From Hyphomonadaceae bacterium (lineage in GTDB: Bacteria; Pseudomonadota; Alphaproteobacteria; Caulobacterales; Aquidulcibacteraceae), in the NCBI GenBank assembly GCA_041398345.1, contig JAWKUY010000004.1, positions 125,026 through 189,025 on the forward strand: 64,000 nt of DNA, in the 5' to 3' direction. Every line of letters starts with the position of its first letter. Position 1 is the first letter of the stretch. Both the position numbers and the translations under genes were made by a program. Of the stretch, positions 38,564 to 41,916 are shown piece by piece. The notes under the pieces were generated by a model. The model worked only from the letters and a program-made list of their open reading frames with translations. It had not been told where the DNA came from and did no database searches.

Positions 38564-39066
38564 GCTTCTCCGCAGGTCTCGAACAGAGCGGCCTGCGATG
38601 CGCTCTCGGCCGACATGCCGCCGAGAATAAGGAAATGAAACGCCGGCTGGAAGCGCTCTGCTGCATCAAGTGCGGCCGCCAGCATGGCCTGAATTTCACC
38701 GATCGAGATTTCATCGCGCCCGATCATCGGCATGGCGTGACGGAAAATGATCGTGCCGTCATCGGACCACACGTCGAAATGCCCAAGCCACAGATTTTCG
38801 TTGATCAGCCCCGCCAGGCGCACGGCCTCGACGCGCCGTGACACCGGCGCCTGAATGTCGAAGCCCAGCGTAAACAGCAGCGCGGGCAGTTCGTGCCGGT
38901 ACGAGAAATAGCCGACCGTCTCGCCCCACGAGCATTTGAACGAGAAATGAACATCGCCGTCCTCGGCGCGTTCACACTGGAAGCGGTCGTCGGAGCCGAT
39001 CACGGCCTCCACCGTCTCCATTGGGTCGGACGGCGCCTCAGCCTCGTCGTCGAGCCACAGATCCAT
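38560..39066 (-). CDS. YbjN domain protein
   Basis: INENLWLGHFDVW motif; conserved neighbour of proC in alphaproteobacteria. Confidence 0.85.
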   Translation of the reverse strand: MDLWLDDEAEAPSDPMETVEAVIGSDDRFQCERAEDGDVHFSFKCSWGETVGYFSYRHELPALLFTLGFDIQAPVSRRVEAVRLAGLINENLWLGHFDVWSDDGTIIFRHAMPMIGRDEISIGEIQAMLAAALDAAERFQPAFHFLILGGMSAESASQAALFETCGEA

Positions 39067-39224
39067 GAGCATCCCCTTCACGCTCAGGGGCCGCCGCGCG
39101 GCCGGAAGATCGTCACGTTCGCCCTTGGGATGCGCGCTTTGCGTCAACGCGTTCGAATCAGACCCCTGCGACTAGGGAACGCGGGAAAAGTTACCGGGGC
39201 ATTTACGCGGGCGCCGCAACACTT

Positions 39225-39845
39225 TCATGGCGTGCAACGCACCACCGCCTTGGCCCATTCAGCACCGCCGAGCGGGCGCCCGGTCGAGGAGGCGCGGCGC
39301 AACTTCTTCAGTGCTTCAGCGCCGACGTCCGTCTCAAAGAACCCGCCGAACCCACGTGGAAATCGCCGCAAAAGCGGCGGTGTACGCACAAGTGCGTCGT
39401 CACGCCCTGACAAATGCGCGCGCACACTGGACCAAGGCCACTCCTCTGCACGCGTGACGAGCCCAGCACGCACCGGATTGAGCCCGACATAGCGGCTGGC
39501 CTGCACGAAATAATCCTCGTCCATCGGATAAGAAGCAAAGCGCCCCTGCCAAAGATAGCCGCGCCAGCCCTCGCGCTTGTTCACCTCGAACGTATAGCGC
39601 CAGTGCAGCGGGGCGATTGCTGCGCGCAGGCCGGCCTCGCCTTTTGGTGTGAGAATGAGGTGAACGTGATTGGGCATGAGGCAATAGCCCCAGCACTCAA
39701 CCTCAGCCTTCGCGCACCATTCCGACGCAAGTTGCAAGTAGCGCAGATAATCGGCCTCACTGAAGAACGTGCGCTGGCGGCGATTGCCGCGTTGCGTGAC
39801 ATGATGAGGCGTGTTGGGCGCCACGATCCTGGCCAATCGCGCCAT
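39225..39845 (-). mobile_element. Y1 HUH transposase (REP-associated tyrosine transposase / IS200-superfamily)
   Basis: MARLAR..HHVTQRGNRRQ, CLMPNHVH (HUH), LWQGRF, RYVGLNPVRAGL (catalytic Tyr), WPWSS; own GGAG RBS. Confidence 0.9.
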
Positions 39846-39867
39846 TTCGCTTTCTCCCGCGCACAAT

Positions 39868-39882
39868 GTACACGTTTTGTTC
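39868..39882 (-). promoter_or_regulatory. Alphaproteobacterial LexA (SOS) box candidate
   Basis: GAAC-AAAACGT-GTAC on the minus strand (GAAC-N7-GTAC), 22 nt upstream of the transposase ATG. Confidence 0.55.
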
Positions 39883-39924
39883 CTCGGCGCAACAGCGTTC
39901 AAAAAGTGTGTGTCACCCTTTCCC

Positions 39925-40487
39925 TCGTCGATGTTGTTAATCCCCCGCAGATAGTTCGCATCAATACCCGCAATGCTCGTTACATTAGGGTTGGCGAGCG
40001 CTGCCTGCAATTCGACCGCACCGAATATCCTTCCTGGGTCCGCGCTTCCAACGAGAGTAGCTATCGGACCACTGAGAGAACCCACGAAACGCTGAGACGC
40101 TTGCCCCCAAAATGACGACGGTGTGTGCCCGGCGAATGACGCACCCCCCAAAAGTTCCCGCTGCAGCGCAGAATTGCCGTCGACGGCATCCAACAGAGCA
40201 TCCTTAAATGCTTGACTCGAAAGCAGCCGTCCCAGCGGCGTATCGTCAATTATCGCAACCTGCGGATTGTTGGTCGCGATGAGTCTTGCAATTTCGTCCG
40301 ACCCAAAAGGGCGGCCACTCGCCGACGTTCGAAATTCACCGCTGTACAGCACCCCCACCCTTCCCGTTGGAGCTCTTGCATCTGTCTGTTGGACCAGCGA
40401 TTCCAACTCCGCCAAACGCTGCTCCGACGGCAGACCATTAATTCGATCAAGCTCATCCAGCGCCTGCTGAAACGTCAAATTTGGCAT
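39925..40487 (-). CDS. ADP-ribosyl cyclase/NAD glycohydrolase-like (CD38-like) toxin domain, C-terminally truncated and in frame with the transposase
   Basis: VLYSG, IIDDTPLG, FWGQASQRF and FGAVE occur in the same order as CD38 LLWS, TLEDTLLG, FWKTVSRRF and FGSVE; lower GC than flanks. Confidence 0.6.
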
Positions 40488-40507
40488 CGTTTATCCCAAG
40501 CAATCGG

Positions 40508-40966
40508 TCAGTCGGAAAAAATGACTTCAACAGGACCAAGAGGCCCGTTGTTTGCGCTGCCGTACGCGCCCAAAGCGCCTTCAATCAGATCGCGCTCTCG
40601 CTCTACAGCCGCCGCACCCACACAACCATTCACGGCGTGGACCTTGAAAACTTGGCGACACTCAAGGTGACCGTTCGAAGTGCGCCCACCGGTGTTCTCT
40701 ATCGACAGAGTCTCACCCCAAAACTGTATGGGGGCCTGCGTAGCATGCCTGAGAATAAAGCGCGAATAGCCGGGCCCGGTTGTTTCGTCGAACAACTCCC
40801 ATCCGCTATCAGGATCCCAAGTTCGCTTCATCTTATAGTCGGATTGGAATGCCACGATATCCTCGCTCGACACTGTTCTTGCAGGCATCTGCACAATCAA
40901 CTGCTGCACGCTTTCGCCACTGTAATCGCGACTCATGATGGCGCAACCATCACCTGCAACAAACAA
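40508..40966 (-). CDS. Hypothetical protein, candidate immunity protein
   Basis: 152-aa lower-GC ORF between hlyD' and the toxin-like ORF, same strand, 20 bp gap to the toxin-like ORF. Confidence 0.55.
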   Translation of the reverse strand: MFVAGDGCAIMSRDYSGESVQQLIVQMPARTVSSEDIVAFQSDYKMKRTWDPDSGWELFDETTGPGYSRFILRHATQAPIQFWGETLSIENTGGRTSNGHLECRQVFKVHAVNGCVGAAAVERERDLIEGALGAYGSANNGPLGPVEVIFSD

Positions 40967-41005
40967 TCAAATGCGCATTCTTCGCCGCCGCGCCACAGTT
41001 TCCCA

Positions 41006-41560
41006 TCACCTTTCCCTCCCCGCTTCTTCCACGCGCCTTTGCAAGGGCGAGAGCAGAAACTCGATGATGCGGCGGCGCCCGGTTTTGATTTCCGCCGTCA
41101 CCGCCAATCCCGCCGTCAGGGCTTGCGCGCGCCCATCGACGTTAATCGAGACGTCGGCCAACTCAATACGCGCGGGGAACACCAGGCCGGTATTTTCATC
41201 TTGCACGGCGTCATGGCTTAGAAACGCCAGCCTTCCGGCGACGACGCCGTAACGCGTGAACGGAAACGCCTCCAGTTTCACCCGCACGTCCTGGCCTTCG
41301 TGAACAAAGCCGGCGTCGCGGTTCAAGACATTGGCCTCCACCACCAAAGTCGAGCCGTCGGGCACGATCACCAGGATCGGATCGGCCGGGCGCAGCACAG
41401 CGCCAACCGTGTGCACCTGCAATTGCTGCACAGTGCCGGTCGCGGGCGCGGTCAACACGGTGCGGGCGTTGCGGTCCTGCGCAATGGTGAGCTCTTCGCG
41501 GCGCAGGCGCGCGGCCGCATCGGCCTCGTTGAAGGCGTCAAGCTCAGGCCGCTTTGGAGT
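41006..41560 (-). pseudogene. hlyD: 5'-truncated HlyD type I secretion periplasmic adaptor
   Basis: LTAPATGTVQQLQVHTVGAV, KLEAFPFTRYG, EIKTGRRRIIEFLLSP; only about 185 C-terminal codons, frame closed by TGA at 41570-41572, no TM anchor. Confidence 0.85.
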
Positions 41561-41562
41561 GC

Positions 41563-41823
41563 TCAGGCCTCAGTCAAAGTCTTCAGCGCGGCCTCCAAAG
41601 CCTCGACGCGCTCACGCAGCGCATCGGCCTCAGCGCGCGCGGCGGCGGCCAATTCCTTCGCCGCCTCGAACTCATCACGGCCGACCAGGTCCATTTCCGC
41701 GACAAAACGATCAGCCTGAGCGCGCATGAAGCTCTTGGCCTCGGCGGAGGCGCCCTGCGCCATCCCCATCGCCCCCGTCATCAAACGGGCCAGATCATCG
41801 AACACCGAGCTTGTCGTTTGCAT
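41563..41823 (-). CDS. ubiK: Accessory factor UbiK family protein
   Basis: MQTTSSVFDDLARL..MDLVGRDEFEA..LRERVEALE; divergent from lgt. Confidence 0.85.
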   Translation of the reverse strand: MQTTSSVFDDLARLMTGAMGMAQGASAEAKSFMRAQADRFVAEMDLVGRDEFEAAKELAAAARAEADALRERVEALEAALKTLTEA

Positions 41824-41916
41824 GTGGACCGATCCTTTGCGCCTACTTAGAAAGCGCCGCGGGGCCGGGCAATGCGGCCAATCAGCTGAAGGTGGGCAAG
41901 CGTGATCGAAGCAGCC

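Follow-up and report, generated by a model that had tools for sequence, protein, structure and literature searches.

We analysed a 64,000-nt window from a Hyphomonadaceae bacterium (genome G000, contig JAWKUY010000004.1), in which one open reading frame (ORF) of 420 codons joins an ADP-ribosyl cyclase (ARC)-like toxin domain to a RAYT, a Y1/HUH transposase associated with repetitive extragenic palindromic (REP) sequences. We take this frame to be an incidental read-through ORF at the border of two unrelated units, with a probability of roughly 0.75. The first unit is an orphan type I secretion system (T1SS) toxin cassette. It holds a 3′ fragment of hlyD, an immunity-like gene and the 5′ part (188 codons) of a toxin gene whose intact relatives encode an N-terminal ARC NADase, then RTX repeats and a C-terminal secretion signal. 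The second is the single RAYT gene of the genome with its own ATG and its own 78-nt leader, made up of a REP hairpin, a promoter/operator-like block and a Shine-Dalgarno (SD) sequence. The toxin gene breaks off directly behind the enzyme domain, at the very 5′ edge of the REP, and in this genome a stop-free leader and an in-phase cut join the two frames.

The fusion ORF lies at 39225..40487 on the minus strand and is free of stop codons throughout its 420 codons in the ORF listing of the window; an earlier note on this DNA had described this uninterrupted frame, and its linker peptide is exactly as quoted there. Residues 1-188 make up the ARC domain and residues 215-420 the RAYT. On the ARC side, similarity to an intact relative of 323 aa (P0004) stops at residue ~187-188. 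On the RAYT side, nucleotide similarity to orthologues (genomes G028, G021, G029, G026 and G015, plus fragments) runs from the end of the coding sequence to 39922-39924 and stops there every time. Because both similarities end at this point, the junction between toxin and RAYT is set at 39924±2, in agreement with the ~39925 given earlier. It coincides with the 5′ edge of the REP element of the RAYT (GGTGACACACAC).

By alignment of eight orthologue leaders, the 26 linker codons of the fusion frame correspond to the non-coding 5′ leader of the RAYT, 78 nt at 39846..39923 on the minus strand, in which a REP hairpin, a promoter/operator-like block and an SD sequence can be recognised. Read along that strand, the REP singlet GGTGACACACAC (39906-39917) sits inside a GAAAG...CTTTT hairpin and is followed by a GAAC-N7-GTAC block (GAACAAAACGTGTAC, 39868-39882) that is kept in all 12 orthologues, then by the SD sequence GGGAGA (39853-39858) and the ATG at 39845. 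The aligned upstream flanks have the same order, namely the motif GAAAGGGTGACACACACTTTT, a variable spacer, the GAAC-N7-GTAC block, SD and ATG. Likeness among the eight leaders starts exactly at the REP, and the DNA 5′ of the motif differs in each genome. Twelve orthologues share the leader and its SD, which bears out the earlier statement that the transposase keeps its own ribosome-binding site and start codon. The REP was recognised only by aligning orthologue flanks; an Rfam scan of 38900-41900 gave no match, and a repeat search found no flanking inverted repeats around the RAYT in G000. A sigma-70 scan returned no promoter-like site; the conserved TTGCGC-16 nt-TACATT block departs too much from the E. 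coli consensus to be taken for a promoter. The one terminator-like site found by the terminator scan is on the plus strand.

A fusion kept by selection should recur as the same pair of domains in one polypeptide in independent genomes, and the search for such cases, which the earlier note had proposed, found none in the genomes or proteins searched. The ARC domain was not found in any of the 60 relatives searched, no Y1 domain was found among the best 150 ARC-domain representatives, the whole 420-aa query retrieved >2000 RAYT relatives with none spanning both halves, and no protein of 231-735 aa covers both. The best whole-query match (P0163, 59% cover) is merely a RAYT gene call extended upstream through the leader; its contig (L036) carries an hlyD fragment, a lipoprotein gene, a REP and the RAYT, out of frame. 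Upstream of the RAYT start, the frame is open for 8-75 codons in the 12 orthologues. Because eight of these leaders hold a stop within the first 26 upstream codons (the other four are open that far), the open leader is not a conserved feature.

A one in three chance of the right phase, multiplied by a chance of ~1/3 that a 26-codon leader is free of stops, gives an estimated chance of a joined frame of ~0.1 per junction, and at least seven junctions between a cassette and a REP are visible in the loci examined. The earlier note had put in-frame insertions at roughly one in three; that figure holds for the phase, and the need for an open leader lowers it to ~0.1. Its suggestion that the join arose by chance gains support from the lack of recurrence and from the unconserved open leader. 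A PADLOC search (E ≤ 0.1) gave no match for the fusion, for its ARC part or for the small ORF that lies upstream of it.

The toxin part is a 3′-truncated gene at 39924..40487 (minus strand, 188 codons) that encodes an N-terminal ARC (ADP-ribosyl cyclase/NADase) domain, as judged by profile comparison with PDB, an AlphaFold2 (AF2) model and Foldseek. The ARC half of the fusion has no Pfam match. An exhaustive HMMER search found 312 relatives, almost all with the domain in the first ~180 residues, and the proteins that carry it at the N terminus are ~140-4650 aa long. A profile of 35 family members matches ARCtox (9RO8) at 6.9e-12, the Streptococcus parasanguinis enzyme 9OUF, which we take to be Tac1, at 1.1e-11, and the Aplysia ADP-ribosyl cyclase 1LBE at 5e-4; the window sequence alone matches 9OUF at 1e-5. 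The AF2 model (pLDDT 92.4) and Foldseek agree on the two-lobed CD38-like fold. Nearly all of the best 50 PDB matches listed by Foldseek are ARC/CD38 structures, the remainder being the Vibrio MARTX NADase domain; their probabilities are 0.92-1.00, with TM-scores of only 0.35-0.5.

Among the 35 relatives E159 is invariant and W127 nearly so. They align with ARCtox E356 and W323, at 9RO8 chain positions 118 and 85, and are thus 33 residues apart, the same spacing as E356/W323. The catalytic Glu is E226 in CD38, E573 in Tac1 and E356 in ARCtox, and the cleft Trp is ARCtox W323 (PMC12605009 for the ARCtox residues). The position of the first cleft Trp (ARCtox W273) holds Y48 in the window, nearly invariant in the family, and that of the second active-site Glu (CD38 E146, Tac1 E516, ARCtox E299) falls in an unaligned stretch near which the window has Q76. 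Profile and model thus identify residues 1-188 as an ARC/CD38-fold toxin domain with its catalytic Glu, and we judge it complete because the matched stretch in 150 relatives ends at query residues ~171-188. The earlier description of an intact ARC-like enzyme domain is therefore upheld. By analogy with its relatives, the domain is likely to act by depletion of NAD(P)+.

Everything past the enzyme domain has been lost from the window copy, as the earlier note had supposed for the delivery tail. The closest relative, P0004 (61-64% identity), aligns to residue 187-188 and then continues with a tail of its own of 130 residues, which is why the tail is judged lost. Longer relatives with the N-terminal ARC domain (ARC-N) end in RTX calcium-binding repeats (HemolysinCabind), a T1SS feature, or in a C-terminal XVIPCD, as in effectors of the Xanthomonas-type type IV secretion system (T4SS); P0019 and P0025 are of the XVIPCD type, and the ARC-N locus L003 adjoins a VirD4-like gene. 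A toxin head at the N terminus fits both carriers because both secretion signals are C-terminal. The window toxin stops at residue 188 and has neither RTX repeats nor a secretion signal, and a search of the assembled genome (85% complete) turned up no trace of the tail.

Upstream of the toxin fragment, on the same strand, lies a small gene at 40508..40855. The earlier note named it as ORF 40508..40966; its start is probably the GTG at 40855 (115 aa), as in the homologues, the longest ORF reaching 40966. A homologue of 42% identity is immediately upstream of an ARC-N gene on the metagenome contig L002, which shows the same synteny (hlyD end, small gene, ARC gene), and in L070 the family is directly upstream of an ARC-RTX gene (HMM E 6e-22). 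Because the same family precedes ARC genes at these two independent loci, as expected of a toxin/immunity pair, the small ORF is likely to be the cognate immunity gene. It has no match in Pfam (E ≤ 1), NCBIfam or PADLOC and, with no Pfam match at that threshold, is not Imm74. An ESM Atlas search with it gave low-value leads only; one homologue, P0159, is 266 aa long.

The cassette begins with hlyD′ (41006..41543, minus strand; Pfam HlyD_3), the last 179 codons and stop of a T1SS membrane-fusion gene that lacks its 5′ part. A full hlyD on contig C13 of the same genome matches it with 97.8% identity over its final 545 nt. In the 538 nt compared (G000:C13:10193-10730) the two copies agree at each of the first 474 nt, and the remaining 64 nt hold 11 differences, all silent in the protein, with a different stop codon; homology ceases 4 nt past the hlyD stop. 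We read this pattern as a clean breakpoint of recombination or gene conversion that lies 64 nt ahead of the stop. The T1SS on C13 is complete (L029 7092-20000+), with hlyB, a 466-aa HlyD, a 231-aa lipoprotein and an RTX protein of at least 2817 aa whose N-terminal head shows no relation to ARC. By composition the cassette is foreign DNA: the stretch from the hlyD′ breakpoint to the REP has 53-56% GC (ARC part 56%), compared with 63% for the RAYT and 64% for the genome.

From hlyD′ through the immunity-like gene, the truncated ARC gene and the REP to the RAYT, the island covers ~2.3 kb (39208..41545) in the spacer between ybjN and ubiK. These two genes adjoin, with ~140 bp between them, in G015 and G021, which thus represent the empty site, and for this reason we regard the whole block, the RAYT included, as an insertion between ybjN and ubiK. 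The earlier view, in which a transposase had landed in a toxin gene, is kept as regards a chance join and changed as regards the inserted unit: an orphan T1SS cassette ends at the REP, and the entire block has been inserted. A decayed local T1SS was also considered as the origin of hlyD′ and ruled out, ybjN and ubiK being adjacent in relatives. G026 has an unrelated insert of ~2.7 kb with an acyl-CoA synthetase-like gene in the same spacer (L035 1466-4200 versus window 39148-41562). The spacer seems to be a recurrent insertion site.

Orphan cdiA-CT/cdiI modules and Rhs-CT orphans offer a close comparison. As in these, a toxin fragment and an immunity gene stand apart from a complete system, a piece of a conserved neighbour gene is kept as a recombination arm with the breakpoint inside it, and the composition is foreign. 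In contrast to these, the variable toxin domain is N-terminal, the toxin gene is truncated at its 3′ end and the system is T1SS; because the variable domain is N-terminal, it is the upstream hlyD that supplies the retained arm, with its 3′ end. By analogy, the cassette is best seen as a mirror image of the cdiA-CT/cdiI or Rhs orphans. N-terminal toxins would leave such mirror-image cassettes generally, and a 3′ fragment of hlyD is a simple signature by which they could be sought in other genomes.

With two such units side by side, the RAYT would be made mainly from its own start and signals, and a fusion protein, if any, would be a minor by-product of read-through transcription from ubiK and hlyD′. 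Read-through transcripts are plausible because no minus-strand terminator-like site was found between ubiK and the RAYT. The ARC domain of any such chimera would be neutralised by the retained upstream immunity protein from the same transcript, and the cassette itself, like other orphan toxin/immunity modules, would be kept for the sake of its immunity gene. Some observations weigh against an incidental frame. It is intact, with neither a stop nor a frameshift in the ARC domain, so that expression of a chimera is possible, and the lack of a minus-strand terminator-like site from ubiK to the RAYT counts on this side as well. The immunity-like gene has been kept, as a functional cytoplasmic toxin would also need, and the cut falls neatly at a domain boundary, as a purely random break usually would not.

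These points bear on a functional chimera, in which a cytoplasmic NADase would be tethered to an ssDNA-binding HUH enzyme. Such a protein would account for the open frame, for the complete enzyme domain with its catalytic Glu and for the retention of the immunity-like gene, and the genes from ubiK to proC all share a strand, uninterrupted by any predicted terminator. We nevertheless hold it to be very unlikely, as the fusion is unique to this assembly across all searches made, its linker is the non-coding leader of the RAYT, with stops in orthologues, the RAYT retains its own SD and ATG, known defence families are unmatched, and an orphan cassette beside a RAYT explains the arrangement fully. 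The related proposal of the earlier note, that such a tethered NADase acts as an addiction or abortive-infection module, which would involve the upstream immunity gene and stabilise the RAYT or the island, fares poorly too and is given only a slim chance: no other protein or genome searched bears both halves, the open leader is not conserved and PADLOC found no match. It is hardly credible that a chimeric join at a repeat created the junction during assembly, even though G000 is a metagenome-assembled genome (MAG) of 30 contigs and 85% completeness that contains the 545-bp hlyD repeat. The REP at the junction, considered as the repeat that causes misassembly, was rejected as too short and too rare, being only ~20 nt with three copies in the genome. 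A Logan contig from a wastewater metagenome run (X1) covers 39781-40075, and so spans the junction, with zero differences, which also bears on the concern raised earlier about a misassembly or a stop at the junction; a second, from run X4, bridges the border between the hlyD′ stop and the cassette (40811-41099). The four Logan runs all belong to one wastewater study, possibly including the source sample of the MAG, and their contigs exclude a gross misjoin but are not independent replication. Some runs leave several parts of the stretch uncovered, which counts neither for nor against the assembly. The fusion is most likely a by-product, and annotation as a bifunctional enzyme is unwarranted.

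A different account makes the position of the break enzymatic rather than random, the fusion ORF still being a by-product. Here the RAYT would cut at the REP and capture or mobilise adjacent single-stranded DNA, and T1SS cassettes would pile up in a slot between REPs beside the RAYT and move with it. Several features of the genus would fit. The REP boundary is identical in all orthologues and the DNA upstream of it is different in each. The genus has many orphan 3′ fragments of hlyD, which without exception run to the hlyD stop but vary at their 5′ ends, and in G026, G029, G014 and G006 a REP doublet lies ≤25 nt from the 5′ truncation point. A REP singlet marks the downstream end of the cassettes, followed by the RAYT or directly by housekeeping DNA, and the cassettes of G006:C13 and G021:C313, which have no RAYT, also end at a REP singlet. 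Blocks of the form hlyD′...REP-RAYT occur in G000, G026, G029, G014 and the metagenome contig L036 and occupy three or more chromosomal contexts, and REPs are rare (3-51 copies), which makes chance proximity unlikely. On the other side, the genomes are related and several blocks may share one origin; REPINs normally cluster near their RAYT and settle in dispensable DNA, so that a passive process would produce the same pattern; the outer ends of the G000 island are free of REPs; and neither a target duplication nor a second defined end was seen. We therefore consider it possible but rather improbable that RAYT action made the junction and the block. The broader proposition is that in this Caulobacterales genus the RAYT and its REPs mark out a cargo slot in which orphan T1SS toxin/immunity cassettes gather, each beginning within a 3′ piece of hlyD and ending at a REP hairpin, with the RAYT creating the junctions and co-mobilising the cassettes; it is likewise improbable. 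If true, it would mean that a domesticated RAYT helps to capture or move genes of interbacterial warfare, a process of which the ARC-RAYT read-through would be one trace. The benefit of RAYTs to their hosts is an open question (PMC5581495), on which such a link to cassette capture would bear.

The setting is of more interest than the fusion, in that orphan T1SS cassettes throughout the genus lie between REP sequences. The REP-bracketed loci with hlyD fragments are L019 7969-8025, L021 13544-13598, L023 4946-5003 and L073 4843-4897, together with L074 6041 and L076 6207. In G029, between the hlyD fragment and the RAYT (L021 10694-11773), lies a gene for a protein of 359 aa that has an HExxH-type motif and, behind it, RTX-like GGxGxD repeats. 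Small lipoprotein-like ORFs flank this gene, so that the slot here holds another toxin/immunity cargo.

As for known ARC toxins, they are C-terminal domains on carriers of the type VI (T6SS) and type VII (T7SS) secretion systems and of contact-dependent inhibition (CDI), with Imm74 or other immunity proteins encoded downstream, and the carriers listed for them comprise T2SS, T5SS/CDI, T6SS, T7SS and others (PMC12356396, PMC12605009, PMC3482391). Tac1 (T7SS, Streptococcus parasanguinis), ARCtox (9RO8, Pantoea ananatis, T6SS PAAR) and Tox-ARC (Zhang et al. 2012) share with the window the catalytic Glu and the cleft Trp (E159 and W127) and a small adjacent gene that is likely to confer immunity. 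The window domain differs from them in being N-terminal, with relatives that carry a C-terminal RTX part (T1SS) or XVIPCD (Xanthomonadales T4SS, X-T4SS), in having its immunity-like gene upstream and without a Pfam match, and in lacking any delivery part; it also has Y48 for the first cleft Trp of ARCtox. Effectors and immunity proteins of the bacteria-killing T4SS of Xanthomonadales (X-Tfe/X-Tfi) are alike in having an N-terminal toxin, a C-terminal XVIPCD and an upstream immunity gene, and some ARC-N relatives (P0019, P0025) are of this kind, whereas the hlyD synteny places the window copy, together with its closest relatives, in the T1SS/RTX branch, and no XVIPCD is present. A branch of N-terminal ARC domains on T1SS or XVIPCD carriers with upstream immunity genes is not described in PMC12356396, PMC12605009 or PMC3482391, and RTX, T1SS and XVIPCD are unmentioned in PMC12605009. 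ARC/CD38-fold NADase toxins also form the N-terminal head of RTX proteins (T1SS) and of XVIPCD effectors (T4SS), with upstream immunity genes from no known family. As for the fusion, it is one more example of two ordinary elements, a RAYT and an orphan fragment of a toxin gene.

The RAYT gene (39225..39845, minus strand, 206 aa from its own ATG) matches Pfam Y1_Tnp at 3e-10, and its sole PDB match is E. coli TnpA-REP, 4ER8, with whose HMH (the HUH motif) its HVH aligns; the conserved Tyr-x3-NPV motif is also present. Against NCBIfam REP_Tyr_transpos (NF047646) it scores 65.6 bits, under the cut-off of 80, so that it falls outside this equivalog. It is a single copy in G000, and orthologues within the genus have 77-89% protein identity. 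In relatives GGTGACACACAC flanks the RAYT on both sides and is dispersed mostly as inverted doublets ~55 nt apart, with 51 copies in G028, 12 in G021, 4 in G026, 3 in G000 (singlets only) and 0 in the controls, the control pattern included. The system thus resembles known RAYT/REPIN systems (E. coli TnpA-REP 4ER8, Pseudomonas RAYTs; Bertels et al. 2017, PMC5581495) in its single-copy, REP-flanked Y1 HUH enzyme and in the inverted doublets ~55 nt apart among relatives. It differs from them in its score below the NCBIfam RAYT cut-off, in having only three REP singlets in G000, in a RAYT whose chromosomal place varies between species of one genus, and in the variable cargo, with toxin/immunity cassettes, that stands between REPs beside the RAYT.

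Two more copies of the singlet motif (GAAAAGGTGACACACACTT) occur in G000, at C18:35427-35445 and C5:85318-85336, with no RAYT or hlyD fragment nearby. On the metagenome contig L070 (3246-20389), three large RTX genes are arrayed with small ORFs before each, one of them the ARC-RTX gene (1462 aa), and a BrnT/BrnA toxin-antitoxin pair lies upstream of the array. A second family of small proteins, unrelated to the window ORF, is directly upstream of more distant N-terminal ARC genes (L071 828-1256, L003 9549-10001), and is probably an alternative immunity family; of the toxins at these loci, one is an RTX protein and the other, partial and named peptidoglycan-binding, is near the VirD4-like gene.

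The GAAC-N7-GTAC element of the RAYT leader is placed between -35-like and -10-like hexamers. LexA (TIGR00498) was not found in G000, an incomplete genome. A very similar element (GAACAAATACGGTAC) stands beside a perfect GTTC-N7-GTTC box upstream of recA (C14:70337), and because of this likeness, the sole basis for the idea, the RAYT may be under LexA/SOS control.

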